Source: a virus (taxonomy: Duplodnaviria; Caudoviricetes). From it: DNA of 64,000 bases. The stretch lies in IMG/VR virus record IMGVR_UViG_2861773553_000003, positions 1 through 64,000 of that record. One strand, given 5' to 3'. The notes beneath the pieces are model-generated. The model searched no databases. It saw only the letters and a program-made list of their open reading frames with translations, and was not told where the DNA came from. A program made the translations under genes and the position numbers. Each line of letters begins with the position of its first letter. The stretch's first letter is position 1. Of this stretch, positions 6,059 through 37,060 are shown one piece after another.

Positions 6059-6144
6059 CGGGCGCGGCGCTCTTCCCCGGCGCCCCGCCGTACATCTGCC
6101 TACACTGGAAAACCGTGACCGCCGTGCATATCCCAGGAGGGGCG

Positions 6145-6438
6145 ATGAGCGTCATCCACCGCTCGCGAGCCGACGTGCCCAGCCTGACCCCCGAGTCCAT
6201 CCTGTCGCACCTGCCGGAGGAGTACCGGAGCGGTTTCCTGGTCGAATACCACGCCGCCCTCAAGCAGGCCTACGACCCCACCCGCTACGACGCCATCGAC
6301 AAGGTGCTGCGCCTGTGGCGGCTGCAGGCCGTGGCCCTCTCCGACCCCACCTACCGGCAGCGGATGGCCGACGCCGAGCGCGGTGAGCCCGGCGTGCCGG
6401 CCGAGGACGTCATCCCCGGCTGGGCCAATCGGTCGTAG
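6145..6438 (+). CDS. DUF6247-like putative antitoxin
   Basis: TPESILSHLPEEYRSGFLVEYHAAL...VLRLWRLQA pattern; AGGAGG SD; precedes a RelE-like gene. Confidence 0.65.
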   Translation: MSVIHRSRADVPSLTPESILSHLPEEYRSGFLVEYHAALKQAYDPTRYDAIDKVLRLWRLQAVALSDPTYRQRMADAERGEPGVPAEDVIPGWANRS

Positions 6439-6444
6439 GCCGCG

Positions 6445-6702
6445 GTGAAATATCAGGTGGAGTTCGCCGCCACCGCGGCGGCCCAGATCCCCGGCCTGCC
6501 CGAGCTGGCCTTCGTCGCCATCGTCTCGGCCCTGGCCGGCATCCGCACCAACCCCTGGCATGGCCTGCCCGTCTACGGTGCGCCGCCGGAGTACCGGATG
6601 GTGACCGTCAGTGACACGCGCGGCGGCGAGGGCCTGATCACCTACCGCGTGGATCAGGAACGCGCGCTCATCCACGTCTTCGACATCACCTGGTTGGACT
6701 AA
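6445..6702 (+). CDS. RelE/ParE-family toxin
   Basis: YQVEFAATAAAQI...NPW...LITYRVD...IHVFDITW; 85 aa. Confidence 0.7.
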   Translation: MKYQVEFAATAAAQIPGLPELAFVAIVSALAGIRTNPWHGLPVYGAPPEYRMVTVSDTRGGEGLITYRVDQERALIHVFDITWLD

Positions 6703-8048
6703 CGCCCCGGCACAGCCGACAGCAGCCGGTCAGCGTCGGCCACCTGGGCATTGCGCCGGTACGGCTGCCAGGCCGCGCGCAGGCGGCGTACCTCCTGCTG
6801 CACCCGCGCCGACCTGATGTCCTGCACCGATCCCAGATCCAGCGCCACCGCCGCCGCGTGATCCACCTCCCCCGCACGCAGCCACGCCTGCGCCGCGCGC
6901 GCGCCGATCAGCGCCCGGGTGCGGCGCTCCACAGAACGACGGCTGGCCATCGAGGCGCTGAAGTGCCGAGCCGCGCCCGCATCGTCGCCGAGTTTGCCCA
7001 GCGCCAACGCGGTGGCGTGTTCTAGCGATTCGCGCCGGAAGTTCCCCGTCCATTCGCTTTGCGGCACCGAGTCGGCCCGCTCCAGCAGCGACTCGGCCTG
7101 ACGCAGCAGGCTCAGCGACGCCCACCGGTCACCCATCCCGCCCTGCGCCTCGCCCTGCATCGCGCGCACCCACGCCCGGGTCCGCGCCGAACCGCCGGCC
7201 CCGAGCGCCGCTGCGGCGGCGTCGGCCAGGTCCCGCGACTGGCGCACGTGACCGAGCTCGGCGGCCTGGGCGGCCATCGAGCGCAGCGCCGTGGCCCGCA
7301 GCACCCGGTCCCCGGCCTGGTCGGCCAGCCGTACCGTGCTGGCGTAGTACCGCTGGGCCAACCCATTGGCCCCGTCGTCGGCCGCCATGTAGGCGGCTAG
7401 GTACGTCAGTTCGCCGGCCGCGACGAACATCTGCGGCTGGGCCCGGCCGCGTGTCCCGCGCAGCAGCGGGACGACCTCGCTCACCAGGTAGGCCGCCACC
7501 GCCGCGCGCGCATGGCCCCCGCCGTACAGGTCGTCCAGGTCGGCGAACACGCGCGTGCTGGCCCGCACCCGTTCCACATCGGCCGAGCCGCCGCGCCGGG
7601 GCGCGGGCGGATGGTCAGGCGGGGGTGGCACGGCGGTCAGTTCGGCCAGCGCGAGCGCGCCCGCGGTCAGCACGGTGCGGCGGTGGAGCATGTCATCCTC
7701 CCCCAGGGCGGCCAGCCGGTCGACCGGGTCGCCCTGCCATAGATCGTGCCCTGGCGCCGCGATCGCCACCAGGGGCCAGCCCAAATCCGCCGAGGTCAGA
7801 TCGGGGCGGCCCAGGCGGCGGCGGAACGCCTCCGTCGCCGCGCATATACCCGCCGGGAGCGGGACGCTCCCGGTCAGCCAGTGGCCGACCGTTGAATGGT
7901 CGTAGCTGAGCTTGACTCCCATCTCTGCGGCGACCGCGTTGACGTTGGCGGCCACGGCGGCTCGCGTCCAGCGGGCCTGGCGGATGAGCGTGTTCAGCGC
8001 CTCGTTGACGATCGGGCGCGTGCGCGGAGGAGTCACCCTGATCCCCAT
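6699..8048 (-). CDS. Actinomycete HTH + TPR-like regulator (NsdA-like family)
   Basis: NEALNTLIRQARWT...YDHSTVGHWLTGSVP, HRRTVL, DDLYGGGH and LAQRYY motifs. Confidence 0.8.
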   Translation of the reverse strand: MGIRVTPPRTRPIVNEALNTLIRQARWTRAAVAANVNAVAAEMGVKLSYDHSTVGHWLTGSVPLPAGICAATEAFRRRLGRPDLTSADLGWPLVAIAAPGHDLWQGDPVDRLAALGEDDMLHRRTVLTAGALALAELTAVPPPPDHPPAPRRGGSADVERVRASTRVFADLDDLYGGGHARAAVAAYLVSEVVPLLRGTRGRAQPQMFVAAGELTYLAAYMAADDGANGLAQRYYASTVRLADQAGDRVLRATALRSMAAQAAELGHVRQSRDLADAAAAALGAGGSARTRAWVRAMQGEAQGGMGDRWASLSLLRQAESLLERADSVPQSEWTGNFRRESLEHATALALGKLGDDAGAARHFSASMASRRSVERRTRALIGARAAQAWLRAGEVDHAAAVALDLGSVQDIRSARVQQEVRRLRAAWQPYRRNAQVADADRLLSAVPGR

Positions 8049-8171
8049 TCACATCGGGTTCACATGCACGCCCCCTCGACCTTGCGCCCTACGCGGTGCA
8101 CCGTCAATAGCACGAGCTGTGACCGTATAGGTGCAGGCCACAACCCGATCACCACCACCCGGAGGAGCGCC

Positions 8172-8813
8172 ATGCGCGTCCTGATCGACGGGCTCGACCT
8201 GACCGGCAAGACCACCCTGGTCCATCACCTGATCACCGAGCTGGGCCAGCGCGGCGTGCCCGCCCGCTCCCACACCTGGATGCTGTCCCCGTACCACCCC
8301 CTGGCCGGGCCGCTGCGGCGCCTGCCGCGCGTGCGCCAGCCCGACTCGGCCCTGCTCACGGCCGCCCTGCTGGGGCCGGGCTACCTGCTCGACGCCCTGC
8401 TGGTGCGGCTGCGCGCCCCCGAGCCGCCCGGCACCGTCCTGATTCAGGACGGCTATGCCGATCGCACGGTTGCGTTCGGAATGGCGGGCGGGCCGTACCT
8501 GGCCGCCTGCCTGGCGCTGCGCTGGCCGCTGTTCGCTCCCTTCGACGCCGCCGTGTACCTGCACGCCCCCCGCCAGGTGCGCGCCGCCCGGCTGGCCGAG
8601 CGCGCCGACCCCGACCCGGGGGACGTGCGCAGCGTCGAGGACGCCAGCTTCGCCGCGACCTTCGAGGCCATGCTCGTGCGCGGGATGGGCCGCCGTCATG
8701 AGCGGCTGCTCGTCTTCGACACCGCCAGCTCATGCCCGGCGGGCATGGCCCGCCAGATCGCCGACCTGCTCGCGCCCCAGCCCGCGCCCGTCGCGGTGGA
8801 GCGCGCCGCGTGA
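8172..8813 (+). CDS. Thymidylate-kinase-like P-loop nucleotide kinase
   Basis: IDGLDLTGKTT Walker A; LIQDGY; AVYLHAP..VRAARL lid; GGAGGAG SD. Confidence 0.75.
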   Translation: MRVLIDGLDLTGKTTLVHHLITELGQRGVPARSHTWMLSPYHPLAGPLRRLPRVRQPDSALLTAALLGPGYLLDALLVRLRAPEPPGTVLIQDGYADRTVAFGMAGGPYLAACLALRWPLFAPFDAAVYLHAPRQVRAARLAERADPDPGDVRSVEDASFAATFEAMLVRGMGRRHERLLVFDTASSCPAGMARQIADLLAPQPAPVAVERAA

Positions 8814-10270
8814 GCACGCCCCTGGACGCCGCGCGGGCCGACGCCGCCGGGCATGAGCTGGCGGCGGCCCTGAACGGCCGCCCGCTCGTCATGGTCGAGC
8901 GCTTCACCGCCGCCGGGCGCACCGGCTACTGCGGACCGGCTCCGCTGCCGATGCTGCGGCCCGCGCTGAGCATCGGCTGCTACCGGTCCTGGGAGCCGGC
9001 CCAGCCCGAGGCCGTCATCGCCGCCGAGGACCTGAGCCGGGTGCGCTCACCCCAGACGCGGCGCGACTGGCTGAACCTGGTCCGCCACCCGGCCGCCGCG
9101 CTCCTGGGCGCGATGGAGCGCTCTGCCGTCATCGCCGCGTGGTACGGCATGCCGCTGCTGCGCGAGCTGGCCGGCCCGGCCGGGACGGTGGCGGCCACCG
9201 CCGGCGAGGTGCGCGCCCGCATCGAGGACAAGATCGCCTTCGACGCGGTCCTGCGCCAGGCCGGCGTGCCCGCGTCCGCGCGCATCCCCTGCGTCCACCT
9301 CGATCGCCTCCCGGCCCTGGCCGAGCTGCGCCGGGCCGTGGGAGGCGAGGTCGTCGTGGTTCAGGCCGCCGGGGTCAGCTCCGGCGGCCGCGGCACCGTC
9401 ATCGTGCGCGAGGCGGCCGACCTGGACCGCGCCGCCGCACTGCGCGGGCCGTACCGGGTGGCCGCCTATATCGACGGCTGGCCGTCCAACACCACGGTGC
9501 TGTCGATCCCTGACGATGACGGCATCCGGGTGTACGTGGACCGGCCCAGCCACAAGAGCGTCGGCGTGGCCGCGCTGGGCATCGGCGAGGCCAAGAGCGC
9601 GGGCAACGACTGGTCGTCGCCCTGGCCGGCGCCGGTGACCGTCCAGCTCATCGACTGCGCCGAGCGCATCGCCGCCTGGGCCTGGCGCGAGCACCGCGCC
9701 TGCGGCCTGTTCGGCCTGGACGCCCTGATCACCGAGGACGGCCGGGTCCACCTCAACGAGATCAACTGGCGCAACCAGGGCACCACCGAGGTGTCCGGCG
9801 TCAACCAGCAGCTTCGGGGATTGCCGCCGTTCCTGGCCGCGCACCTGATCTGCCAGCTCGGCGGCCGGGTCGGCGACTGGCTGGGCGACCCGGATGCGTT
9901 CAACCGCGCCACCGTCGCCCAGGCCGCCGCCGGCGGCGGCCCGTTCTACGTCAAGACCCGGTGGCGCGAAGCGTTCCCGGCCCGCATCGCCCGGGAGAAC
10001 CCCAGTGGCGTCTACCGACTGGAGGAGGACGGGCGGCTGCACTTTGTCCGGCCCGGCGCGCACCCGGCCGACGCCGCGCTCGACCACGGGCAGGTGCTGC
10101 TGGCCAACCTGCCCGCCCCCGACATCACCTGCTTGCCCGGCGCCGAGCTGTGCACCATCGAGGGACAGGCTCGCGTGAGACAGCCCTTCGACGGTCCCGA
10201 CTCGGCCTCGGAGCTCATCCAGCGCGTGCACGCGGCCGTGCACGCGCTGTTCACCCCCCACCCCCACTGA
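8810..10270 (+). CDS. ATP-grasp ligase
   Basis: IEDK, SSGGRGT, GLFGLDALI and LNEINWR motifs; GTGA overlap. Confidence 0.75.
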   Translation: MSTPLDAARADAAGHELAAALNGRPLVMVERFTAAGRTGYCGPAPLPMLRPALSIGCYRSWEPAQPEAVIAAEDLSRVRSPQTRRDWLNLVRHPAAALLGAMERSAVIAAWYGMPLLRELAGPAGTVAATAGEVRARIEDKIAFDAVLRQAGVPASARIPCVHLDRLPALAELRRAVGGEVVVVQAAGVSSGGRGTVIVREAADLDRAAALRGPYRVAAYIDGWPSNTTVLSIPDDDGIRVYVDRPSHKSVGVAALGIGEAKSAGNDWSSPWPAPVTVQLIDCAERIAAWAWREHRACGLFGLDALITEDGRVHLNEINWRNQGTTEVSGVNQQLRGLPPFLAAHLICQLGGRVGDWLGDPDAFNRATVAQAAAGGGPFYVKTRWREAFPARIARENPSGVYRLEEDGRLHFVRPGAHPADAALDHGQVLLANLPAPDITCLPGAELCTIEGQARVRQPFDGPDSASELIQRVHAAVHALFTPHPH

Positions 10271-10282
10271 GGAAGGTCACTC

Positions 10283-11983
10283 ATGCCCCTCGCCCCCGTG
10301 GCGGCCCTTCCGGCCGCCCCGCTCGACTCGGCGCTGCTGGACCAGCTGCGCACCTTGCCCGATGAGGCGTTCACCCGCCTGCAGTACCTCACGCCCGCCG
10401 CCGGCTGCGCCAACCGCTGCGCCTTCTGTAGCCAGGCCGCCGGCCGCGACATCTGGCAATTCACCGCGCCGGGCCTGACCGCCTTCACCCGCGCCTTCGC
10501 CGCCGTGGCGCGCGAGCGCGGGCTGCACATCGCCGGCGGCCGCGCCCACCGGCCCGGGGTGCTGTTCCCCTACCTGGACAACGACATCTTCAGCTACCCG
10601 CACCTGGACGTGCTGTGCGGCCTGGCCCGCGACGTGCTCGACGTGCGGCTGCGCGTCTCCTCGGTCGGCTTCTCCCGGCACAACGCGGACCTGGTGGCGA
10701 TGCACGCCCGGATCGCCGCCGAGCACGGCGCGGTGTTCGACGGGATCCGGCTCTCGCTCACGCCGTACACCATCGGCTGGACCGGGGCCGATCCCGGCAC
10801 CGACCGGTCCGAGTTCATCGCCGACTTCGCCCACGCCCTGGCCACCTACCGGCCGGTATTCGACCAGCTCGGCCACGGCCCGGCCACCGCCGCCGTGGAG
10901 ATGCGATTCGCGCCCCTGCTGGGCCTGGCCGAGCTGGTCGACACCGTGATGGCCGGGCGGCACGTGCTGGGCTGCGGCCCGCACCTGCTCATCGCCTGTG
11001 ACGAGCACGACGGGCAGGGCCTGCCGCTGACCGAGATCGCGCGGCTGGACGAGCGCACCCAGCCGGTGTTCACCGAGCCCGGCCGCCGTTACCTGCACCT
11101 GGTCGGCGACCATCTGGACGTCAGCCCGGCGACGGTGCGCGCGGCGCTGGCCGGGGAGTTGACGGTGCCGCACCGGGCCCGGCACGTGCAGCTGCACCGC
11201 TTCGCCAACGCCGCCGACGGCGACTACTACGCCGCCGACCCCGACTTCCACATCGACGGCACCTTCCGCGCCCTGCACCTGTACCCGGCGACCGAGACCC
11301 GCACCCGCTCGGGCTACACCGACGCCACCCGCTGGCTGCTCAACACGCTGCTCGCCTACAAGGCCGCGCATGACCTGGGACGCCGCGACCCGTTCGCGGC
11401 GGCCACGGCGGGCGACGTGGCCGCCGTCCTGGCCGACCTGGAGGCCACCGCCGCCGCGCTCGCCAGCGGCGTGGACGCACGCGCGGCCGACCACCTGACC
11501 CAGGTGGTCATCCCGATGGCCCGCGGCTACGCCCAGGCGCTGGAGTTGGCGGACTATCCGCCTGCGACGTTCTTCTCCCGCGACTTCTCGGTGGACACCG
11601 GGCAGATCGTCAACCAGGGCCGGGCCATGGGCCTGTTCCGGGGGCTGGTGAGCCTGGACGGCGAGCCGATGACGCCGCGTGAGGAGCGCGGCTTCGGCGC
11701 CGCGTCCCTGTCCAGCGTGCGCGGCCCGATCTGGCGCATCGCCCCCGTGCCGTACGCCGACGGGGGCCAGCTGGCGCCGGCCCTGGCCGGAGGCAAGAAC
11801 AGCGTCGCCGATCGACCCACCGTGGTGATCGAGGAGCTGGACCCCTGCCACCTGCGGCCCGTCATGCGCGGCAGCTGCACCCGGCTGCGCCGCTTCACCG
11901 TCACGGGCGTCGAGGTCGAGCGGGTGAGCCTGGCCCAGGCTCGCGCCGACCTGGGCCTGCCCGGCCTGCTCCCGGTCGCCTGA
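10283..11983 (+). CDS. Radical SAM protein with long uncharacterised C-terminal region
   Basis: N-terminal CxxxCxxC (GCANRCAFC); 566 aa. Confidence 0.75.
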   Translation: MPLAPVAALPAAPLDSALLDQLRTLPDEAFTRLQYLTPAAGCANRCAFCSQAAGRDIWQFTAPGLTAFTRAFAAVARERGLHIAGGRAHRPGVLFPYLDNDIFSYPHLDVLCGLARDVLDVRLRVSSVGFSRHNADLVAMHARIAAEHGAVFDGIRLSLTPYTIGWTGADPGTDRSEFIADFAHALATYRPVFDQLGHGPATAAVEMRFAPLLGLAELVDTVMAGRHVLGCGPHLLIACDEHDGQGLPLTEIARLDERTQPVFTEPGRRYLHLVGDHLDVSPATVRAALAGELTVPHRARHVQLHRFANAADGDYYAADPDFHIDGTFRALHLYPATETRTRSGYTDATRWLLNTLLAYKAAHDLGRRDPFAAATAGDVAAVLADLEATAAALASGVDARAADHLTQVVIPMARGYAQALELADYPPATFFSRDFSVDTGQIVNQGRAMGLFRGLVSLDGEPMTPREERGFGAASLSSVRGPIWRIAPVPYADGGQLAPALAGGKNSVADRPTVVIEELDPCHLRPVMRGSCTRLRRFTVTGVEVERVSLAQARADLGLPGLLPVA

Positions 11984-12055
11984 GACTGGTCCCGGCGCGG
12001 GCGGCGATCACCGATTCACCCGCGATCGCCGCCCGCGCCGGGAATACTGCCCTGC

Positions 12056-12583
12056 ATGAGCCAGCCAGAGCCGTTCTCCCGTATCAAGATCCGGGTCGGC
12101 GCCGTGGTGTTCTGCGGCGACGACGTCGCGCTCATCCGCCGCGACCGACCCACCGGCAGCCACTACACCCCGCCGGGGGGCAACGTCCGCGCCGGCGAGC
12201 CCCTGCCCGATGCCCTGGCCCGGGAGATGTCCGAGGAGCTGCACTTAGACCTGGCCGAGGCCAGCGCGCCCGAGCTGGCCTGGATCTGCGACCAGATGGT
12301 CTCCCGGCCCGGCCCCACCCCGCCGCCCCGCAAGATCCACATGATCTTCCGGTGTCACATCACGCCACAGGTGCGCCAGGGGCTGGCCACCGTGGAGTAC
12401 GACGCCCAGCCCGACGGCTCGGCCGAGCCGGGCGTCATCGAGTGGGTGGACTACCGCAAGGCGGACCGGCTGCCGTTGTTCCCGCTGGTCGGCCAGGCCC
12501 TTGCGGCTCTTGCCCACCCCCGGGCCCCGATCGACGCCGTTCTCCTGCCGGCCGCGACGGATGCGACCTACACCTGGCGCTGA
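12056..12583 (+). CDS. NUDIX hydrolase
   Basis: Nudix box PGGNVRAGEPLPDALAREMSEEL. Confidence 0.85.
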   Translation: MSQPEPFSRIKIRVGAVVFCGDDVALIRRDRPTGSHYTPPGGNVRAGEPLPDALAREMSEELHLDLAEASAPELAWICDQMVSRPGPTPPPRKIHMIFRCHITPQVRQGLATVEYDAQPDGSAEPGVIEWVDYRKADRLPLFPLVGQALAALAHPRAPIDAVLLPAATDATYTWR

Positions 12584-12625: not shown

Positions 12626-12784
12626 GGGCGAAACTCCCATATCGGAAGTCACGCCCCCCTAGAGTGCTATCGCCGGGACGCGGCACGCCCCTTGCGATCC
12701 TGGGCCCCTCGCAGTCCTCATTCTGAGAACGCGCGGCCCCGTTCCGGCTCCAACGAGCACGGCAGGGCGAAGGAGGACACCCGC

Positions 12785-14023
12785 GTGGCGCGGTGGTGGA
12801 TGGGGATCGACTGGGCCGAGGGCCTGCACGATGTGGCGGTCGTGGACGAGGACGGCCAGGTGGTGGCGCGGGCCCGCATCCGCGAGACCCCCGAGGGGGT
12901 CAAGGAGCTGCTGGCGCTGCTGTCGGGGCTGAGCACCTCCAAACGCCACTCCCGCCGCCAGGTGCCCATCGCGATCGAGACCAGTCGCATCCTGCTGGTG
13001 CACGCCCTGCGCCAGGCCGGCCTGCAGGTCGTGGCGATCAATCCCATGGTCGTCGCCCGATACCGGGGGCGGGTGTCCCCGGCCCGGCGGCGCAAGAGCG
13101 ACCGGGGCGACGCCGAGCTGCTGGCCAACATCATCCGGGTCGACGCCCACCTGCACCGGCCGCTGCCCCGGCCGGGGCTCCAGGCCCAGGTGGTCACCGA
13201 GCTGTCGCGGGCTCAGCGGCACGCGGTGCGCGAGCAGCACCGGCAGCTGGGACGGCTGCGCAGCCTGGTGCGCCTGTACTACCCGGCGGCGTTGTCGGCC
13301 TTCGACGGACGGTCGGGGCTGCTGCGTCCCGAGGCCCGCGCGCTGCTGGCGGCCGCGCCCACGCCGCGCGCCGGGGCCCGGCTGCGGCACCGGCAGATCG
13401 CCGACCTGCTTGTGGCGGCCGGGCGCACCCGCCTGATCGACGAGCAGGCCGCGCGCATCGGGGAGCGGCTGCGCACGCCGCAGTTGCGCCGCGCGCCCGA
13501 GATCGAGGCGGCGATGGGCGAGGCGATGCTGGCCACGCTGGCGCTGACCACCCAGGCGTGCGCGCAGGTGGAGCAGCTGACCGCGCAGATGACGAGCGCG
13601 TTCGAGGCGCATCCGCACGCGCCCCTATATCGCAGCATGCCGGGGGTGGGGCCGGTGATCGGGGCGCGGCTGCTCGGCGAGATCGGTGATGATCTGGACC
13701 GGTTCGCCTCGGCCCGGTCGTTGCGGGCCTACGCCGGGGCGGCGCCGCTGACGTGGGCCAGCGGGAGCACCAGGACGGTGCGGGCGCGCCGCTTCGCGCT
13801 CAACGGGCTGCTGCGGGAGTCCGGGCACCACTGGGCGTTCGCGTCGCTGACCCGGTCGGTGGGAGCGCGGGCGTACTACGACCGGCGGCGGGAGGCGGGG
13901 GACGGGTTCGCCGCCGCGCTGCGCCGCCTGGCCGGGCGGTTGCTGACGTGCCTGTACGGGTGCCTGCGGACGGGGGTCTGCTACCGGGAGGAGATCGCCT
14001 TCCCCTCGATCGCGGCGGCCTGA
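12785..14023 (+). mobile_element. IS110-family transposase/recombinase
   Basis: DEDD motifs GIDWA, IAIET, KSDRGDA; MPGVG; AGAAPLTWASG catalytic-serine motif; AGGAGG SD; element ends not defined. Confidence 0.9.
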
Positions 14024-18647: not shown

Positions 18648-19901
18648 ATGGACGTCAACGCGGCCTTCCTGGCCGAGAAGCGGGACCAGCTCGCGCGCCA
18701 GCGCGAGGCCCGGGACGCGGCCATCGCCGCCGAGGCCGACAAGGCCGCCTGGATCGAGTCGCAGGTGGCCGCCGGCCGCATGCAACAGATCGGCCCCGAC
18801 CGGTACCGCGTCCTGACCGGATGGGACGCCGGGGAGGTGTTCACCGTCCGCCGCGTCGGCGACCAGGTCGAGGTGGTCGCCCAGCACGGGCTGGACACCA
18901 GCACCGGCGGCGTCGCCCTCTACACCCGCCGCCCCGAGTGGCACAACGTCGGCACCGTGATCCCGGACGGGCTGACCAGCATCGAGTCGGTCCTGCGGGC
19001 CGCGCGGATCGACTGGCGCGCGACCAAGAAGCGCCTGCGGTACACCACCCTGGCCGACGACGACCCGGCGCTGTCCACCCTGTCGGCCGCCGACCTGCGC
19101 GTCTCGCCCGATGACTACGTGGTGATCCGGGAGGACACCGGCGCGCGCCTGGGCCGCGTCGGCGGCCTGTACGAGGTGATCCAGCAGCGGGACATGTTCC
19201 GCTTCCTGGAGGACCTGACCGAGAGCGGCGACGTCGTGTGGGAGACCGCCGGGGCCTTGCGGGGCGGCCGGAAGGTCTTCGTCACCGCGCAGATCCCCGA
19301 GTCGATCATCGTGGACCGGGGCGGGCTGGACGACGAGATCCAGCTCTACCTGGCCGTCATCAACTCCCACGACGGCCGCTCCGGCGCCGAGGCCGTCGTC
19401 ACCCCGTGGCGCATCGCCTGCAGCAATACCGAACGCTTCGCCGTCCGCGACGCCCGCACCCGCTGGAAGATCCGGCACACCCCCAACGCGCTGCAGCGCG
19501 TGGCGCAGGCGCGGGACACGCTGGGGCTGACCCTGAAGTACGCCCAGCAGTGGGAGCAGGAGGAGACCCAGCTCGCCCGCACCGACATCCTCCTGGACGA
19601 GGTGCGGGGCCTGATCGACGAGCTGTGGCCGCTCAAGGACGACGCCGACGCGTCCGCTCGCACCCGGCACCACACCAGGGCCGACCACATCATGGCCCTG
19701 TTCGAGGGGGAGAGTCAGCGCCTGGGCCGCTCGGCGTACGCCGCGGAGCGGACCATGACCGACTTCCTCGACCACTACCAGCCCCGGGGCAGCCGGACCA
19801 TGAGCGAGGAGGTGGCCCGCGCCACCGCGCTCTTGGAGGGCGCCGACGACGAGCGCAAGTCCACCGTGCACCGCCGGCTCATGCGCCTGGTGCGCGCCTG
19901 A
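18648..19901 (+). CDS. DUF932-domain phage/plasmid protein
   Basis: WHNVG, YEVIQ, WETAGALRGGRKVF, NSHDG and RIACSNT motifs. Confidence 0.85.
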   Translation: MDVNAAFLAEKRDQLARQREARDAAIAAEADKAAWIESQVAAGRMQQIGPDRYRVLTGWDAGEVFTVRRVGDQVEVVAQHGLDTSTGGVALYTRRPEWHNVGTVIPDGLTSIESVLRAARIDWRATKKRLRYTTLADDDPALSTLSAADLRVSPDDYVVIREDTGARLGRVGGLYEVIQQRDMFRFLEDLTESGDVVWETAGALRGGRKVFVTAQIPESIIVDRGGLDDEIQLYLAVINSHDGRSGAEAVVTPWRIACSNTERFAVRDARTRWKIRHTPNALQRVAQARDTLGLTLKYAQQWEQEETQLARTDILLDEVRGLIDELWPLKDDADASARTRHHTRADHIMALFEGESQRLGRSAYAAERTMTDFLDHYQPRGSRTMSEEVARATALLEGADDERKSTVHRRLMRLVRA

Positions 19902-24552: not shown

Positions 24553-25557
24553 CTACTGTCCCGACTCCAGCTCACGGGTGCGCCGCTGGACGACCTCGTC
24601 CAGGATGTCCTCGGGAACGTCGGCCTCCAGCTCAGTGGTCAGATCCTGCAGGGCCTGCAGGATCCGCCGTGTATCCAGCAGCAGGGCGGCCGCGCCTTCG
24701 GGGTAGTACTCGACCAGGTCGCGCAGCTTCTTGCGCCGGGCGTCGTCGCTGATCGCCATGGACTCGGCGGCCTGGGTCGCGGTCCGCACGGCCACCTCAT
24801 ATCGCTGGTAGGTCGAGCGCACCCGTTTCGGTGCCTCGCCGGTGAACTGCTCCAGCTGCTTGGGCTCGCCCAGCCCCAGCACCGTGCGCGCCCTCTTCAA
24901 GCCGGCTTCGCCGATGTCGCCCTCGGCGTTCGCCAGGTCGAAGACGGCGCGCGCCTTGTCGGGCCCATGCTTTTTAATCAGCGGGCCCAGGATGCTGGTT
25001 TGCCGGAACGACCAGTCGAGCTCCAGGTCGGGCCAGGTGCGCACGACCCGGCCGTACTCGATCAGGCGGTAGGCGTGCGCGCGCTTGTACCCGAACCGCT
25101 CCTCGGCGTAGACCTCGAAGTTGGGCACCAGGCCGTGCTCTTGGATGTGCGCGAGCGCACCCCCGATCGAGGCGGCGATGTACCGGCGCATGTACCGGTC
25201 CGTCAGCTGCTTGTGCTCGGCCGCGTCCCGGATCGCCCGCTCGCAGGCGGCCAGCTGCTCGGCCGGGGTGCCCTCGGGTTCGTCGAAGGTGGGCAGCAGA
25301 GCGAAGTAGTTCTGCAGCGCCTTCTCCGGCGTGTCCGGCAGGGCCGGCGGTGCGGGCGCGGGACGGGACGTGGGCGCCCACTCGGCGTCGGCCTGAGGCG
25401 AGACCGGTTCGGAGAACTCCACCTTGTCCAGCGCGGCCGTGCCGCCGCCGATCGTCCGGCGGCCGCGCGGTGCCCGGCGGCGGGGCGCCGTGACGGAGTC
25501 CTCGGCCTGGGCGGCCGGCTCCGCCCCGGCGGCGGCGGTATCGGTCTCGGCGCTCAT
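24553..25557 (-). CDS. Putative partition adaptor / centromere-binding protein (ParA partner)
   Basis: Overlaps the parA stop; HTH-like segment NFEVYAEERFGYKRAHAYRLI; no ParB CTPase motif seen. Confidence 0.6.
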   Translation of the reverse strand: MSAETDTAAAGAEPAAQAEDSVTAPRRRAPRGRRTIGGGTAALDKVEFSEPVSPQADAEWAPTSRPAPAPPALPDTPEKALQNYFALLPTFDEPEGTPAEQLAACERAIRDAAEHKQLTDRYMRRYIAASIGGALAHIQEHGLVPNFEVYAEERFGYKRAHAYRLIEYGRVVRTWPDLELDWSFRQTSILGPLIKKHGPDKARAVFDLANAEGDIGEAGLKRARTVLGLGEPKQLEQFTGEAPKRVRSTYQRYEVAVRTATQAAESMAISDDARRKKLRDLVEYYPEGAAALLLDTRRILQALQDLTTELEADVPEDILDEVVQRRTRELESGQ

Positions 25558-26261
25558 GCGGCGTCCTCATCGTAGGGGGCGACCAGCTCGTCGCCGACGT
25601 CCTCGTACTCGGCCAGGTCGTGCAGCGGGTTCTCGCTGTGGATGGCCTGGCGGTACCACTTCCAGTTCGTCGCCTGCGCCTGGAACGCCTCGAAGTCGTG
25701 CCGGCCGAGCCAGGCGCGGGCGTCGCGCCCCTCGTTCGAGGGCGGGGAAGGCACCTTGGTGAGCAGGACCCGGACCCCGATCTCGTGCGCCACGTCCTGG
25801 GCGGCCTCCTCGGCCGCCTTGAACGTCGGCGGCACGCGCTCCAGCTCGCCGGGGGTGGGCGCGACCGCGATGACCAGCTCGTGCGACTTGCGCAGCGCCG
25901 CCTTGAAGATGTCGGGGCTCTCGCCGCCGGTATCGACGATGATCACGTCATAGGCGCCCTGCTCGACGTGGTCGTCGATGCAGTCGTCCACGTGCGGGCT
26001 GGGGAAGGTGACCAGGGTGAAGGGGAGCTCGACCCCGCGGCGCTTGAGGTTGCGGTACCAGGAGTAGCAGGTCTGGGACAGCGGGTCGGCGTCGACGACG
26101 AGCACGCGCAGGCCGTACACCTTGGCGAAGAACACCGCGAGGAAGAACGTGCTGGTGCTCTTGCCCGCGCCTCCCTTCAGGATCCCGACCGTGATGACCA
26201 GCGGCCGGGGAAGGCGAAGTCTGCGCTCGCTCCGGGCGGGGCGTGCGGCGGTGATGGACAT
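25554..26261 (-). CDS. parA: ParA-family partition ATPase
   Basis: Deviant Walker A KGGAGKST, VLVVDADP and IIVDTG motifs. Confidence 0.9.
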   Translation of the reverse strand: MSITAARPARSERRLRLPRPLVITVGILKGGAGKSTSTFFLAVFFAKVYGLRVLVVDADPLSQTCYSWYRNLKRRGVELPFTLVTFPSPHVDDCIDDHVEQGAYDVIIVDTGGESPDIFKAALRKSHELVIAVAPTPGELERVPPTFKAAEEAAQDVAHEIGVRVLLTKVPSPPSNEGRDARAWLGRHDFEAFQAQATNWKWYRQAIHSENPLHDLAEYEDVGDELVAPYDEDAA

Positions 26262-31174: not shown

Positions 31175-31617
31175 TGGACCGCACCCCGCAGGCGGTGCTC
31201 ACGAGCGCCCTCGATGTGCTGCGCACCCAGGGTCTGGTGTGCGGCGCGTACTACGATCGCGATCAGGACGACCTCCCACCGGCCCGGCGGCGAGTCTGCC
31301 CGATGGGCGCCATCGCCGTGGCCTGCGGCCACGAGCCGGACCTGTGGCTGGACCTGGACCCCGACAAGCGCGAGCTGTGGGAGAACGAGCCCTCCATCCG
31401 GGCCGCGTTCGGCGCCGCCTGGGCCCTGGTCCGCGAGCTGCGGGATCGTGATCGTCTCGCCGCGCCGGTGCGAACCCGGGGCGAGATCCACGTGACGGTG
31501 ATCCACTGGGTGGACTACGTCGCGCAGAGCAAGGGCGAGATCCTGGAGGTGATGCGGGCCGCCGCGCGGCGCACCGACGACCAGGGCCTCCCGCTGCTGT
31601 GGCGGGAGGCGGCGTGA
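31171..31617 (+). CDS. DUF6197-like protein (paralogue 2 of 3)
   Basis: VLTSALDVLRTQGLVCG...CPMGAI...WVD...MRAAA. Confidence 0.65.
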   Translation: MMDRTPQAVLTSALDVLRTQGLVCGAYYDRDQDDLPPARRRVCPMGAIAVACGHEPDLWLDLDPDKRELWENEPSIRAAFGAAWALVRELRDRDRLAAPVRTRGEIHVTVIHWVDYVAQSKGEILEVMRAAARRTDDQGLPLLWREAA

Positions 31618-32018
31618 GCGGCGATCTCGTCCTGGACTCCACCGCCGTCCTGCAGCGCGCCGCCGATCATCTGGACCGGTACGGGATGGTCTACTTCCTG
31701 TACACCTCGCCCTTGGGGGCCACGCGATTGGCCGAGCAGAGCATGTGCCCGGTGGGGGCGATCCGGCACTCCAGCGGCCTGCACCCGGACCCCGACCACC
31801 CCGGGGCCGACGAGGATCCGCAGCGGCTGATCCTGGCCGAGACCGCCGTGCGCCGCCTGGCGGCGTGCGCACCGGTGCCCATGCGCCGCGACCCGGTCAA
31901 GGCCGTGCTGGCGTGGGTGGACCGTCGCCTGCCCAGCCGGGCGGAGGTCGTGTCCTACCTGCGGCAGGCCGCCGCCGACCCGTCTCCTCCCGGCCCCGTG
32001 CCGATCGTCCCGGTCTGA
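31614..32018 (+). CDS. DUF6197-like protein (paralogue 3 of 3)
   Basis: VLQRAADHLDRYG...CPVGAI...WVD...LRQAA. Confidence 0.65.
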   Translation: MSGDLVLDSTAVLQRAADHLDRYGMVYFLYTSPLGATRLAEQSMCPVGAIRHSSGLHPDPDHPGADEDPQRLILAETAVRRLAACAPVPMRRDPVKAVLAWVDRRLPSRAEVVSYLRQAAADPSPPGPVPIVPV

Positions 32019-33202: not shown

Positions 33203-33706
33203 TCAGGCCACGTCGAGGGCGGCGGCCTGGTCGAGGTCGGCCCAGGTCCGCAGACCCGGGGGCACGCAGCCGCAATACCCCCAGGCGGAGCTGAGCGCCG
33301 AGACCAGGTGCAGACCGGCGCCGTGCCCCAGCTGCGGGAAGTCGGTGTGCGGGCGGAGGACGGGGACCTGATCGGCGCCGGCGTCGTGCACCTCGATGCG
33401 CACGCCGCGCCGCAGCCGCCACAGCAGCACCGCGATCTGCCCGCCGAGGCGGGCGGTACGGCTGTGGCGCAGGCTGTTGGTCCACAGCTCGCTGACGATC
33501 AGGCGCGCGTCCGCGGCGAGGGCGGCGGGATAGCCCGCGCGGCGCAGGACCTGATCCACGAGGGCGCGCAGGTCCCCCAGCGCGGCGGCCTCGGCGCGGG
33601 TGGAGGCGCCGGTGAGCATCGCCACCGCCGGCGCCCGGCCGTGCCAATCGACCAGGTGCTCCATCGCCACGGCCGGCCCGGCCGGGCCGGTACGGACGGT
33701 GCTCAC
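33203..33706 (-). CDS. ATP-binding protein (HATPase_c-like, anti-sigma type)
   Basis: LIVSELWTNSLRH, IEVHDAG, GAGLHLVSALSSAWG. Confidence 0.85.
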   Translation of the reverse strand: MSTVRTGPAGPAVAMEHLVDWHGRAPAVAMLTGASTRAEAAALGDLRALVDQVLRRAGYPAALAADARLIVSELWTNSLRHSRTARLGGQIAVLLWRLRRGVRIEVHDAGADQVPVLRPHTDFPQLGHGAGLHLVSALSSAWGYCGCVPPGLRTWADLDQAAALDVA

Positions 33707-33936
33707 GAGCCGGCCCCGGATTCGGCGGAGCCGTCGAGCGCGTGGTCGGTGACGGGACGGGCGGGCAGGTCCTCGGGGAACGGGTGGGGAAGGCGCATGA
33801 CCTCCGCCAGCGTGGGAAGCTCGGGGGCGCGGACGACGCACCCGCCGCCGAAGCCGAGCCGCAGGCCATTGCCCAGGACGTCCGGGCGCGCGCCGCGAGG
33901 ACGCGCCGGAACGTGTGCGTAGTGGTCGGTGAGCAT
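33703..33936 (-). CDS. Small hypothetical protein
   Basis: GGGAG SD; GTGA overlap with the next gene. Confidence 0.45.
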   Translation of the reverse strand: MLTDHYAHVPARPRGARPDVLGNGLRLGFGGGCVVRAPELPTLAEVMRLPHPFPEDLPARPVTDHALDGSAESGAGS

Positions 33937-34898: not shown

Positions 34899-35792
34899 AT
34901 GCCCTCGTTCAGTCCGCCCGGGCCGCTGCTGCTGCGGCTGAGCATGGAGCTGCGCCGGGTGCGACTGGAGTCCGCCGAAGACAACCCCGCCCTGCGCAAT
35001 GTCACGGACGTGGAGAAGGCGCTCCGGTGGGGACGTGGCCGGCTGGCGGCCTGGGAGCGGGGCCAGTGGCAACGCCCGGACTACACGCTGATCACCGTCC
35101 TGCTGGACCACTACGGCACCGCCGATCCCGACCGCCAGCTGATCTTGACGCTGGTCGACGAGGCGCGGCGCACCCCCTGGTACAACAAGTACAAGGACGC
35201 CTTCCGCTCGGCCTATCCCGGCTTCGAGGCGGCCGCCTCCCAGCTGCGCTTGATCGAGCTGATGCGCGTGCCGGGCTTGTTCCAGACCGCCGAGTACGCC
35301 GCCCACATGGTCCGCAGTGGACAGGCACTGAGTGACGATGTGGTGCAGCAGCGGGTCGAGGCACGCCTGGCCCGCCAGAACGCCATTCTCAACCGAGAGG
35401 AGCCGCCCCAGATATCGGTAGTGATCGACGAATCAGCGCTGCGTAAACGGGTGGGCGGACCCAAGGTGATGGCCGATCAGGCTCGGCATTTGTTCGAGCT
35501 GAGCGTGCGGGGCCATATCCAGCTGCAGGTCCTCCCCGACGAGTCCGGCCCGTACCTGGCCATGCACTCCAGCTTCGTGATGCTGGACTTCCCGTACGGC
35601 ATGCCGCCGAGCATGGTGTTCGTGGAATTGGCCAGTCACGACCTCTACCTCGACGGGCCGTCCGAGGTTCAAAGGCATACCCTCGTATTCAATCAGGCCA
35701 GTCTGCTGGCGCTGACGCCCGAGCAGACGCGCGCATGGCTGGCCACGCGTGTAGACCAACTCGAACAACGTAAGGGCGATCATGGACCGTAG
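34899..35792 (+). CDS. Xre-HTH + DUF5753 regulator (WhiJ/Scr1-like)
   Basis: ELRRVR..WERG, VPGLFQTAEYA, RLARQ, VIDESALR, IQLQVLP. Confidence 0.85.
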   Translation: MPSFSPPGPLLLRLSMELRRVRLESAEDNPALRNVTDVEKALRWGRGRLAAWERGQWQRPDYTLITVLLDHYGTADPDRQLILTLVDEARRTPWYNKYKDAFRSAYPGFEAAASQLRLIELMRVPGLFQTAEYAAHMVRSGQALSDDVVQQRVEARLARQNAILNREEPPQISVVIDESALRKRVGGPKVMADQARHLFELSVRGHIQLQVLPDESGPYLAMHSSFVMLDFPYGMPPSMVFVELASHDLYLDGPSEVQRHTLVFNQASLLALTPEQTRAWLATRVDQLEQRKGDHGP

Positions 35793-36043: not shown

Positions 36044-36220
36044 GGACCGTAGCTCTGTCAGGATATGCCCGGCGCTACTGTCGGGACGAGGGTTGACAGG
36101 CGCGGCAGGAGCGCCGCCGCAGCTCACCGCCCGAACGCCGACTCAACGATGCATTACAACCTCGTCGCGATCAGTGAAATTTACAGGGCGTGCCCCTACC
36201 GGGCAGTCACAATCGCGTGC

Positions 36221-37060
36221 ATGGCGCGCATTTCCCCGCCCGAATTGGCCCGTGAACTCGGGGAACTCCTGCGCAGCCTGCGCCGGGCGCAGAATCTGAC
36301 GATGACGCAGGTGGCGCATCGGACCGGTGTCAGCGCCGCCAAGCTCAGCCGCATCGAGACGGCCACGTTCCGGCCGCAGCGGGACGTCGTCGAGGCCGTC
36401 CTTGCGGTGTACGGCGCGGATGAGGAGACCCGCCGGCACTGCGTCGCCCTGACCGACGGAGCCCTGGCCGAGCCGTGGTGGGCGCCCTACAAGGCGGTGC
36501 TGCCGGGCCGGTTCGCGGCCCTGGAGACCGCCGCGGTGCGGATCTGCACCTGGCAGCCGCTGCTGCTGCCGGGGCTGGTCCAGACCCCGGACTACACCCG
36601 GGCGGTCTTCGCCGCCGCCGGTTCCCCGCCCCAGGTGACCGAGCTGGCGGTGACCGCGCGGCAGATGCGTCAGCGCGTGCAGCTGAGCGGGCCGGACGCG
36701 CTGCGGCTGCGCATGGTGCTGTGGGAGCCGCTGCTGCGGCGCCGGATCCTGCCCTCGCCGCTGTGGGCCGCGCAGTTGTCCGCCCTGGCCGAGTGCGCGA
36801 GCCGGCCGAACCTCAGCGTGCGGGTACTGCCCGAGCGCCCGCATGGGCATCCGGGCCTGGAGGGCGGCTTCTCGGTGCTGGAGCTGCCTCATGATCGGCG
36901 TGTCGTGCACACCGAGGGGGGTCCGGCCGAGTCGATCATCGATACGATCCCCTCCGTTGCTGAGTTCGACCGGCGATACCGGTGGCTGGAAGCGCACGCG
37001 CTCCCTACGGGGGAGTCGGCGGTACTGATCGCCAAGATCGCGAGGGAGATCAGGTGCTGA
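36221..37060 (+). CDS. Second Xre-HTH + DUF5753 regulator
   Basis: LRSLRR..SAAKLSRIET, LPGLVQTPDY, RQMRQ. Confidence 0.85.
   Translation: MARISPPELARELGELLRSLRRAQNLTMTQVAHRTGVSAAKLSRIETATFRPQRDVVEAVLAVYGADEETRRHCVALTDGALAEPWWAPYKAVLPGRFAALETAAVRICTWQPLLLPGLVQTPDYTRAVFAAAGSPPQVTELAVTARQMRQRVQLSGPDALRLRMVLWEPLLRRRILPSPLWAAQLSALAECASRPNLSVRVLPERPHGHPGLEGGFSVLELPHDRRVVHTEGGPAESIIDTIPSVAEFDRRYRWLEAHALPTGESAVLIAKIAREIRC

Follow-up and report, generated by a model that had tools for sequence, protein, structure and literature searches.

An unannotated radical-SAM enzyme recurs with nucleotide-handling partners in a patchily distributed cassette that may make and trim a non-canonical nucleotide

In a 64,000-nt stretch of DNA assigned to a virus of the Caudoviricetes (IMG/VR record IMGVR_UViG_2861773553_000003, positions 1 to 64,000; hereafter the window), an NsdA-like regulator gene lies divergently beside four genes encoding a thymidylate-kinase-like (Tmk-like) P-loop kinase, an ATP-grasp ligase, a 566-aa enzyme with a radical S-adenosylmethionine (SAM) fold and a NUDIX hydrolase (Table 1). 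The radical-SAM enzyme belongs to an unannotated family that recurs with the same partners in other genomes, is fused to NUDIX or NADAR hydrolases in several relatives, exchanges its partners between lineages and is patchily distributed. Judging from this gene content, we tentatively propose, with confidence a little short of even, that the operon forms a self-contained module, mobile between genomes by horizontal transfer, whose enzymes produce a non-canonical nucleotide and subsequently trim it, for use in conflict or stress. The substrate class, the order of the steps, the product and the physiological role are what we infer from these observations.

The window DNA has ~73% G+C, and plots of G+C at third codon positions (GC3 frame plots) supported the reading frames of all five genes where a preliminary description of this DNA had placed them; the identities that it had given to the five products were borne out by family and profile matches. 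The kinase gene starts at ATG 8172 behind GGAGGAG and encodes 213 aa, replacing a 305-aa open reading frame (ORF) from 7896. The ATP-grasp gene starts at GTG 8810, which shortens its product from 512 to 486 aa and overlaps the kinase stop codon in the sequence GTGA; the two genes are therefore translationally coupled, as first described. Gaps of 12 and 72 bases separate the ATP-grasp stop codon from the 566-aa gene and the latter from the NUDIX gene, respectively. The regulator is encoded on the minus strand and the four enzymes on the plus strand, in agreement with the divergent arrangement reported earlier. It matched the NCBIfam model 'NsdA family TPR-like regulatory protein' (NF053720) over residues 17-440 (E 1.7e-95, 321 bits, cut-off 75) and scored far under the cut-offs of the equivalog models for NsdA and NsdB proper. 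An IS110-family transposase gene directly downstream of the NUDIX gene forms the right-hand edge of the cassette. An ORF check of the cassette span found no further supported ORF, transporter gene or short precursor-peptide gene, consistent with the preliminary description. A scan for sigma-70 promoter and terminator consensus sequences found nothing and is uninformative for actinomycete DNA of 73% G+C.

The radical-SAM enzyme is the most unusual component of the cassette. No family in Pfam (including Radical_SAM, PF04055), NCBIfam or PADLOC matched it at E ≤ 0.01, and one of 14 relatives, P0134, matched PF04055 below threshold (E 1.1e-4, 22.9 bits vs 29.5). Residues C42, C46 and C49, which form a CxxxCxxC motif, are conserved without exception in 27 sequences with 35-74% identity to the window protein, as are a DTGQIVNQGRA motif and numerous Arg, Lys, Tyr and Asp residues; a GGE-type SAM motif was not spotted by eye in this alignment. 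A word-indexed search returned 117 enzyme clusters, all labelled 'hypothetical' or, in UniRef, 'radical SAM protein', and a precomputed Pfam domain was present on just two of them, both NUDIX fusions. The 27-member profile found 216 proteins at E ≤ 0.001 among 1.84 billion representatives, with no apparent spill-over into other families; therefore, the enzyme family is small and sharply bounded. Additionally, the family profile gave two chance-level rows and nothing else against PDB sequences, and ESM Atlas returned just the family itself and generic radical-SAM/SPASM clusters.

The AlphaFold (AF2) model of the 566-aa protein had a pLDDT of 93.6 and a pTM of 0.91. Foldseek found no match to the whole model at E ≤ 0.001; among its weaker rows were radical-SAM cores (viperin, spore photoproduct lyase, DesII and OxsB) with probabilities of up to 0.99 over ~190 columns. 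In a VIA structural comparison against 48,161 chains, the best 43 rows were all radical-SAM enzymes (Z 12.9 to 5.6; classes taken from entry titles and, for a few, from recall), among them EpeE (12.9) and SkfB (11.6) as well as the nucleotide-acting viperin (11.5), BlsE (10.3), MoaA (9.3), QueE (8.8) and OxsB (7.8). Other neighbours were SuiB and CteB and the RNA- or DNA-acting spore photoproduct lyase, MiaB, RimO, Cfr and TYW1. By its predicted fold and its cysteine triad, the 566-aa protein is a radical-SAM enzyme, and it is predicted to cleave SAM.

The VIA alignments cover ~160-230 residues of the enzyme, scattered from residue ~28 to ~543; therefore, the barrel is interrupted by unfamiliar sequence and not merely followed by it. 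The preliminary description had pointed to a long unfamiliar C-terminus and had proposed AlphaFold modelling with a Foldseek search. This check yielded a confident model with a radical-SAM barrel and confirmed the unfamiliar part, which is mainly an internal insert of ~220 residues (~210-430), not a C-terminal tail alone. Folded alone, the insert (residues 210-432) was modelled as a beta-rich body with a helical hairpin (pLDDT 96.1). Its best match among PDB structures was to the 55-residue helical hairpin (Z 6.5), the beta part reached Z 5.0, and Foldseek found nothing at E ≤ 0.001. The modelled insert appears to be without a clear solved relative, which is no proof of a new fold. No cobalamin-binding family was among the Pfam matches of the enzyme, which has no Pfam match at all and for which no search was aimed at a cobalamin site; OxsB aligns with it over the barrel alone.

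The three partner enzymes of the window were assigned at different levels of detail. The kinase carries the P-loop GLDLTGKTT, and a profile of 13 sequences (A3) matched solved thymidylate kinases with an E value of 2.9e-16 over positions 2-188 of 202. As a single sequence, it gave only weak matches, below PF02223 and to the PADLOC model PDC-M51B (2e-4), and its homologues beside the enzyme in other phyla matched PF02223 directly (E 1e-21 and 1.7e-22). The position that we take to be the Tmk 'DRY' motif reads DGY in the actinomycete clade, and the specificity of the kinase may thus differ from dTMP. In Bacillota, the Tmk-like partners (L047:7330-7941, L045:2455-3042, L053:7360-7929 and L065:7366-7926) read GSGTST where the window kinase has GKTT; these proteins, which do not have the Walker-A lysine, may bind nucleotides without kinase activity.

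The ATP-grasp protein scored just below the cut-off of PF02222 (E 1.4e-5, 25.3 bits, cut-off 27), a model that eight of 13 family members matched, and its profile retrieved D-Ala-D-Ala ligase first (7.4e-7), followed by biotin carboxylase, PurT and PurK. A NEINxR motif and residues K140, E316 and N318, presumably ATP and Mg ligands, are invariant in the family alignment, and the family comprises ~132 clusters, mostly unnamed. The NUDIX protein exceeded the cut-off of PF00293 (E 9.2e-11, 42.3 bits vs 21.1). Its Nudix-box residues G41, G42, E48, R56, E57, E60 and E61 are invariant in 13 sequences, and the box has been formulated as GX5EX7REUXEEXGU in the accessible part of a published account (PMC6112128). 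Its similarity to MutT-type and NadM-Nudix proteins gives no specific assignment, and it weakly matches the PADLOC model PDC-S07 (E 4.6e-6). PADLOC-DB v2 gave no match for the enzyme, the ATP-grasp protein or the regulator, and none of the components corresponded to a system model.

The cassette is conserved well beyond the window. A scan of one genome per species gave 77 enzyme loci, five of which hold a C-terminal piece of the enzyme alone, and the remaining 72 were counted. Partners were tallied within 2.6 kb of the enzyme with hidden Markov models (HMMs) built from the loci themselves, after single-linkage clustering of neighbour ORFs had been spoiled by merged and antisense ORFs in high-GC loci. 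The preliminary description had made its reading depend on the genes co-occurring elsewhere, and they do: Tmk-like, ATP-grasp and NUDIX genes together flank the enzyme in 22 of the 72 loci, an arrangement that we therefore judge to be far beyond chance. Separately, a NUDIX or NADAR gene was found in 57 loci, a Tmk-like gene in 41, an ATP-grasp gene in 32 and an NsdA-like gene, often just ~30% identical to the window regulator, in 20; eight loci had none of these partners. All 22 full cassettes are actinomycete, and 21 of them keep the gene order of the window, the exception being L026, with the kinase gene downstream. With stricter flanks (at least 420 aa of the enzyme matched and 1.5 kb on both sides), the full cassette was present in 20 of 52 genome loci. 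ATP-grasp, enzyme and NUDIX genes are also adjacent in Saccharibacteria and Berkelbacteria (L027, L028 and L035).

In a quick maximum-likelihood tree of 65 of the 77 loci, which did not include the window protein, Nonomuraea and Streptomyces enzymes interleave, and the candidate-phyla and Bacillota groups match their cassette type. In the five loci with a C-terminal enzyme piece (L052, L068, L070, L071 and L074), a NUDIX gene follows directly; four of the pieces start near residue 400 and one at 315, and they represent either a shared deletion or a short form.

A metagenome scan added 68 enzyme loci, giving 80 that met the stricter flank limits (52 genomic and 28 metagenomic). A Tmk-like gene was present within 2.6 kb in 50 of these, a NUDIX or NADAR gene in 54, a GreA-like gene in 27 and any listed partner in 67. 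The gut and rumen Bacillota cassette consists of a Tmk-like gene, the enzyme, NADAR, a GreA/GreB-like protein and a weakly matched CYTH protein, a frequent metagenome type combines the enzyme with Tmk-like and GreA-like genes, and three loci combine LysR, the enzyme and a NADAR-DHH fusion. PRPP (phosphoribosyl pyrophosphate)-synthetase-like genes were also found near the enzyme in some loci. The ligase beside the enzyme occurs in three unrelated forms, namely ATP-grasp, a 374-aa protein with an AlaRS catalytic domain (L033 and L034) and an AsnB/PP-loop-like protein (L129 and L141). This recurrent ligation step is compatible with the suggestion in the preliminary description that the product is aminoacylated. 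A comparison of the ATP-grasp profile with two uncharacterised neighbours (L014:9685-10959 and L039:6651-7913) by hhalign revealed no relation.

Moreover, among 14 long relatives of the enzyme that were scanned, three carry a C-terminal NUDIX domain, three an N-terminal NADAR domain and one a C-terminal NADAR domain. Enzyme-NUDIX fusions include P0124, P0112, P0106 and L039, and a further enzyme-NADAR fusion is found in L041. These fusions argue that the enzyme and the hydrolase handle the same molecule; they are compatible both with a hydrolase that completes the product in the manner of TubG and OxsA and with one that serves as a safety valve. With partners that are mostly nucleotide-handling across phyla and with fusions to NUDIX and NADAR, the nucleotide theme of the preliminary description holds. 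Several loci have further, separate NUDIX genes a few kb or less from the enzyme, at L011:619-1179, L017:11613-12167, L028:99-704, L035:10546-11070, L042:5255-5956 and L063:4311-4748.

Many loci outside the actinomycetes pair the enzyme with a GreA/GreB paralogue (L047:10046-10516, L102:8275-8775 and relatives). Most of the paralogue can be aligned with Escherichia coli GreB (E 1.5e-5) and its tip and C-terminal domain with GreA, and it keeps the acidic tip motif (DLRENPEF vs DLKENAEY in GreA). All three Bacillota genomes tested contain a second, stronger-scoring Gre gene elsewhere, and the cassette copy is therefore an extra paralogue. A divergent WYL regulator is present in four of five tested loci of the enzyme, Tmk-like and GreA-like type and in L041. 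The WYL genes are located at L102:4900-5790, L110:4903-5823, L114:4896-5786, L132:4967-5914 and L041:6475-7422, and in all of these loci but L041 a second gene, for an uncharacterised protein of ~335 aa, accompanies the WYL gene.

In two of the 72 genome loci, the enzyme is immediately preceded by a TIR(-EAD1) gene and a TIR-NB-ARC-TPR STAND gene (L014:4151-7759 and L016:3916-7762). The enzymes of these loci nest within the actinomycete kinase-ligase-NUDIX clade in the quick tree. Downstream of the enzyme, both loci encode a conserved protein (424 and 468 aa, 39% identity between the two) that is a candidate nucleotidyltransferase-like protein by our reading of a GS...D[LI]D motif.

The distribution of the enzyme is sporadic. 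The genome of the window holds one copy, and the enzyme is present in 3 of 401 genomes of the window's family, in one of which it is split into two frames; the ATP-grasp gene is present in 5 of the 401. The cassette is spread over Streptomyces, Kitasatospora and Nonomuraea, the enzyme also occurs in Saccharibacteria and in gut Bacillota with genomes of 1.3-1.5 Mb, and across loci it is frequently broken or truncated. Mobility is suggested by the IS110 transposase gene beside the cassette, by the ParA and DUF932 genes of the window and by relaxase and integrase genes in some of the actinomycete flanks, which vary from locus to locus. PLSDB contained just two relatives, ~160-aa C-terminal pieces (residues 403-562) on the Streptomyces megaplasmids NZ_CP030864.1 and NZ_CP095012.1.

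Based on these partners, the following pathway can be envisaged. The Tmk-like kinase would phosphorylate a nucleoside monophosphate, and the radical-SAM enzyme would alter the sugar or the base of the phosphorylated nucleotide by means of a 5'-deoxyadenosyl radical. The ATP-grasp ligase might then join a carboxylate and an amine on the nucleotide, for example by adding an amino acid. Finally, the NUDIX hydrolase would cleave the polyphosphate and thereby release the final monophosphate or nucleoside, or else limit the pool, and the NsdA-like regulator would hold the operon off until a signal arrives. The product would most likely remain inside the cell and act on nucleic-acid synthesis, transcription above all, against phages and other invaders or under stress. 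Our best single guess is a product that is inducible, stays inside the cell and is directed at polymerases; it is suggested by the dedicated regulators, the rarity and frequent decay of the enzyme, the extra GreA paralogue and the link to TIR-STAND genes.

Both the antiviral chain terminators made by viperin and the nucleoside drug oxetanocin come from radical-SAM enzymes with nucleotide substrates. A bolder version of the proposal, which we regard as speculative and rather improbable in its full form, is that the family represents, besides viperin and independently of it, another lineage of radical-SAM 'antiviral nucleotide synthases'. The kinase and the enzyme would be switched on by NsdA-, WYL- or LysR-type regulators or downstream of TIR-STAND sensors and would produce a polymerase-poisoning nucleotide. 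NUDIX, NADAR, CYTH or DHH hydrolases would clear the pool of the analogue as self-protection, and in many lineages the dedicated GreA paralogue would excise the analogue from the stalled RNA polymerase of the host; phage polymerases would have neither protection. An amino-acid-type group, attached by the ATP-grasp, AlaRS-like or AsnB-like ligase, would place the product in a class of nucleotide not yet described.

The enzyme family is unnamed in the databases, has a confident model with a large insert of unrecognised fold, and has consistent nucleotide-handling partners from soil actinomycetes through candidate phyla to gut Bacillota. A new nucleotide analogue would mean new chemistry for the biology of bacterial conflict and stress and could explain why a second GreA-like factor accompanies the enzyme in many lineages. 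If nucleotide sanitation is the role instead, a function would all the same be assigned to an unannotated enzyme family. The finding is directly testable because the four genes can be expressed and nucleotide pools can be read.

Several observations weigh against a nucleotide-making module for conflict or stress. The window cassette is without a GreA-like, WYL, TIR, NADAR or CYTH gene, and the links to transcription and conflict are therefore borrowed from relatives that are 30-60% identical. No listed partner was found in 13 of the 80 well-flanked loci, and the partner counts, including the 22 of 72 full cassettes, are descriptive and overstate independence, since the loci themselves were the source of the HMMs and many of those from Bacillota and metagenomes nearly duplicate one another. 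Three genomes of the window's family, G187 (L084), G324 (L085) and G395 (L086), hold the ATP-grasp gene without kinase, enzyme or NUDIX genes; an NsdA-like gene 59-65% identical to that of the window lies divergently beside it in the first two loci, and the contig of the third ends at the gene. Accordingly, the ATP-grasp ligase may have a role of its own. In addition, searches of 50,697 phage records and of IMG/VR retrieved no relative of the enzyme. The flanks in Bacillota and candidate phyla are mostly housekeeping genes (MutS, UvrA, RuvB, RpoB, tRNA synthetases, pyruvate kinase and AsnB). No conserved gene is shared by the actinomycete flanks, some of which carry relaxases, an integrase, NERD/Prim-Pol or AbiEii and others plain housekeeping genes; a defence-island signature is thus absent in Bacillota and candidate phyla and just suggestive in actinomycetes. 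Finally, the closest structures, EpeE and SkfB, are those of peptide-modifying enzymes within ~1.4 Z units of viperin, and the fold alone therefore does not single out a nucleotide substrate.

A full-text literature search found no description of the enzyme family or of the gene combination, in line with the preliminary description, in which the combination was not recognised as a described pathway; the viperin-kinase pairs, oxetanocin, tubercidin and Ophion are analogues and not the same system. Prokaryotic viperins (pVips), which make 3'-deoxy-3',4'-didehydro nucleotides, resemble the cassette in pairing a radical-SAM enzyme with a nucleoside-monophosphate-kinase-type gene, in their compactness and in their sporadic distribution, and the viperin fold is among the best matches to the enzyme (5vsl, Z 11.5 over 210 residues; Foldseek probability 0.94-0.99 over ~186 columns). 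However, viperin and pVips are compact single-domain enzymes of ~300 aa, whereas the present enzyme has 566 aa, no PADLOC or Pfam Radical_SAM match and a ~220-residue insert absent from viperins, and its cassette includes ATP-grasp and NUDIX partners. A strict viperin homologue was rejected on the basis of the missing PADLOC match, the length and the confidently modelled insert. A DNA hypermodification cluster of the phage type, which the preliminary description had also considered, was likewise rejected: there are no copies in the phage records or IMG/VR, and no DNA-handling gene recurs beside the enzyme.

In oxetanocin A biosynthesis, as described in the accessible part of PMC7074753, the radical-SAM enzyme OxsB and the phosphohydrolase OxsA act together on dAMP, dADP and dATP, and a nucleoside analogue results. 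OxsB matches the enzyme structurally (5ul2, Z 7.8). However, OxsB is cobalamin-dependent, its partner is an HD-domain hydrolase and the system is without kinase or ATP-grasp, whereas the present cassette has a NUDIX hydrolase and an enzyme that matched no cobalamin-binding family. The accessible part of PMC6112128 describes tubercidin synthesis as an actinomycete pathway in which the radical-SAM enzyme TubB, listed at 139 aa, acts before the Nudix enzyme TubG performs the last tailoring hydrolysis. Unlike the cassette, tubercidin and toyocamycin clusters carry GTP cyclohydrolase I, CPH4 synthase, PRPP transferase, UbiD and an MFS transporter. Ophion, a three-gene anti-phage system (radical-SAM OpnA, PHP protein OpnB and PRTase OpnC), is proposed in the accessible text of its preprint to interfere with phage transcription (bioRxiv 10.1101/2025.09.30.679545). 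On that description, Ophion also places a radical-SAM enzyme alongside enzymes of nucleotide metabolism; it differs in its PHP and PRTase partners, its restriction to Gammaproteobacteria and the relation of OpnA to viperin, the comparison being by description and not by sequence.

NADAR domains are linked to NAD and ADP-ribose. The TIR-STAND association occurs in L014 and L016 alone of the 72 genome loci, the window cassette being without it. In the accessible part of PMC7159879, Nudix is listed among the NAD/ADP-ribose-linked domains of TIR-STAND-type conflict systems, and the single mention of a radical-SAM domain there concerns another, peptide-linked system.

Of the alternatives to an intracellular nucleotide, a small gene cluster that makes a nucleoside-type natural product for secretion, as an antibiotic or a signal, survives best, although we consider it unlikely. 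The NsdA-like regulator would switch it on during differentiation, and the NUDIX hydrolase would perform the final dephosphorylation in the manner of TubG. The actinomycete host and the regulator fit this idea, as the NsdA family is named for a repressor of sporulation and antibiotic production, and so does a self-contained cassette that has spread horizontally among Streptomyces, Kitasatospora and Nonomuraea. Precedents for NUDIX tailoring and for a radical-SAM enzyme with a phosphohydrolase are given in the accessible parts of PMC6112128 and PMC7074753, respectively. However, no transporter, resistance or extra tailoring gene is conserved alongside, the Saccharibacteria with small genomes and the gut Bacillota that also hold the enzyme are not typical antibiotic producers, and the GreA-like, WYL and TIR-STAND partners elsewhere point to intracellular action.

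Somewhat less probable still is housekeeping damage control or salvage, in which the enzyme and the hydrolase would repair, recycle or pre-empt a damaged nucleotide or cofactor and no 'weapon' would be made. Both NUDIX and NADAR are classic sanitising enzymes, and NADAR/YbiA plays such a part for riboflavin intermediates. The 'house-cleaning' role of Nudix proteins is named in the accessible part of PMC6112128. The housekeeping flanks in Bacillota and candidate phyla, the presence of the cassette in reduced, salvage-dependent genomes, and an extra NUDIX, PRPP synthetase, purine/uridine phosphorylase-family PNP_UDP_1 or queuosine-salvage gene near some loci agree with such a role. Weighing against it are the extreme patchiness (3 of 401 family genomes) and the frequent breakage or truncation, which are unlike a needed function, and also the tight control through dedicated NsdA, WYL or LysR regulators and the association with TIR-STAND genes.

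We regard it as improbable that the enzyme modifies tRNA, rRNA or DNA, with the ligase attaching an amino acid to a base by chemistry of the lysidine or archaeosine type. The AlaRS-like partner in L033 and L034, the tRNA synthetases and SpoU methylase near some candidate-phyla loci, and structural neighbours including spore photoproduct lyase, MiaB, RimO, Cfr and TYW1 could be read in this way. However, no recognisable nucleic-acid-binding domain was found in the enzyme, whose insert is without a clear match, and ten family members have isoelectric points between 6.2 and 9.7, without a uniform shift to the basic side. The kinase, NUDIX, NADAR, CYTH and DHH partners better fit small phosphorylated substrates, and DNA hypermodification would predict the phage copies that were not found. 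The least probable reading by far, a pair resembling those for ribosomally synthesised and post-translationally modified peptides (RiPPs), with the radical-SAM enzyme and the ATP-grasp protein acting on a small peptide, draws on the peptide-modifying top fold matches (EpeE, SkfB, SuiB and CteB) and on the fact that ATP-grasp enzymes make graspetides, and it was rejected because precursor ORFs, proteases and transporters are missing both from the span and from the conserved neighbourhood, the three invariant cysteines alone indicate no SPASM/twitch auxiliary cluster, and the recurrent partners are nucleotide enzymes, Gre-like proteins, TIR proteins and regulators with zero peptide-handling genes.

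Outside the cassette, the window between 14000 and 40000 looks plasmid- or ICE (integrative and conjugative element)-like, with many small unannotated ORFs; the genes that could be named in and around it are included in Table 1.

Table 1. Genes of the cassette and named features of its surroundings in the window
Feature	Position	Strand	Basis or remark
NsdA-family HTH (helix-turn-helix)/TPR-like regulator	6699-8048	-	NCBIfam NF053720
Divergent intergenic gap, presumed promoters	8049-8171 (123 bp)	.	GGAGGAG ribosome-binding site ahead of kinase ATG
Thymidylate-kinase-like P-loop kinase, 213 aa	8172-8813	+	Profile vs solved thymidylate kinases
Divergent ATP-grasp ligase, 486 aa	8810-10270	+	PF02222 below cut-off and profile matches
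Radical-SAM-fold protein, 566 aa, unannotated family	10283-11983	+	CxxxCxxC and predicted model
NUDIX hydrolase, 175 aa	12056-12583	+	PF00293 above cut-off, Nudix box intact
IS110-family transposase	12692-14023	+	NF033542, E 1.4e-49
DUF6247	6115-6438		Upstream of cassette
DUF932	18648-19901		
ParA-like	25554-26261		
DUF6197	31599-32018		
HATPase_c_2 anti-sigma-like gene	33203-33841		
WhiJ-like HTH+DUF5753 genes, two	34899-35792 and 36065-37060		

An IS110-type transposase gene also adjoins the enzyme in L050. In a Nonomuraea locus, a large ORF on the minus strand (L001:13018-17637) is found ~3 kb from the cassette; it encodes a hemopexin repeat and a Tc-toxin TcA TcB-binding domain and is probably unrelated to the cassette.

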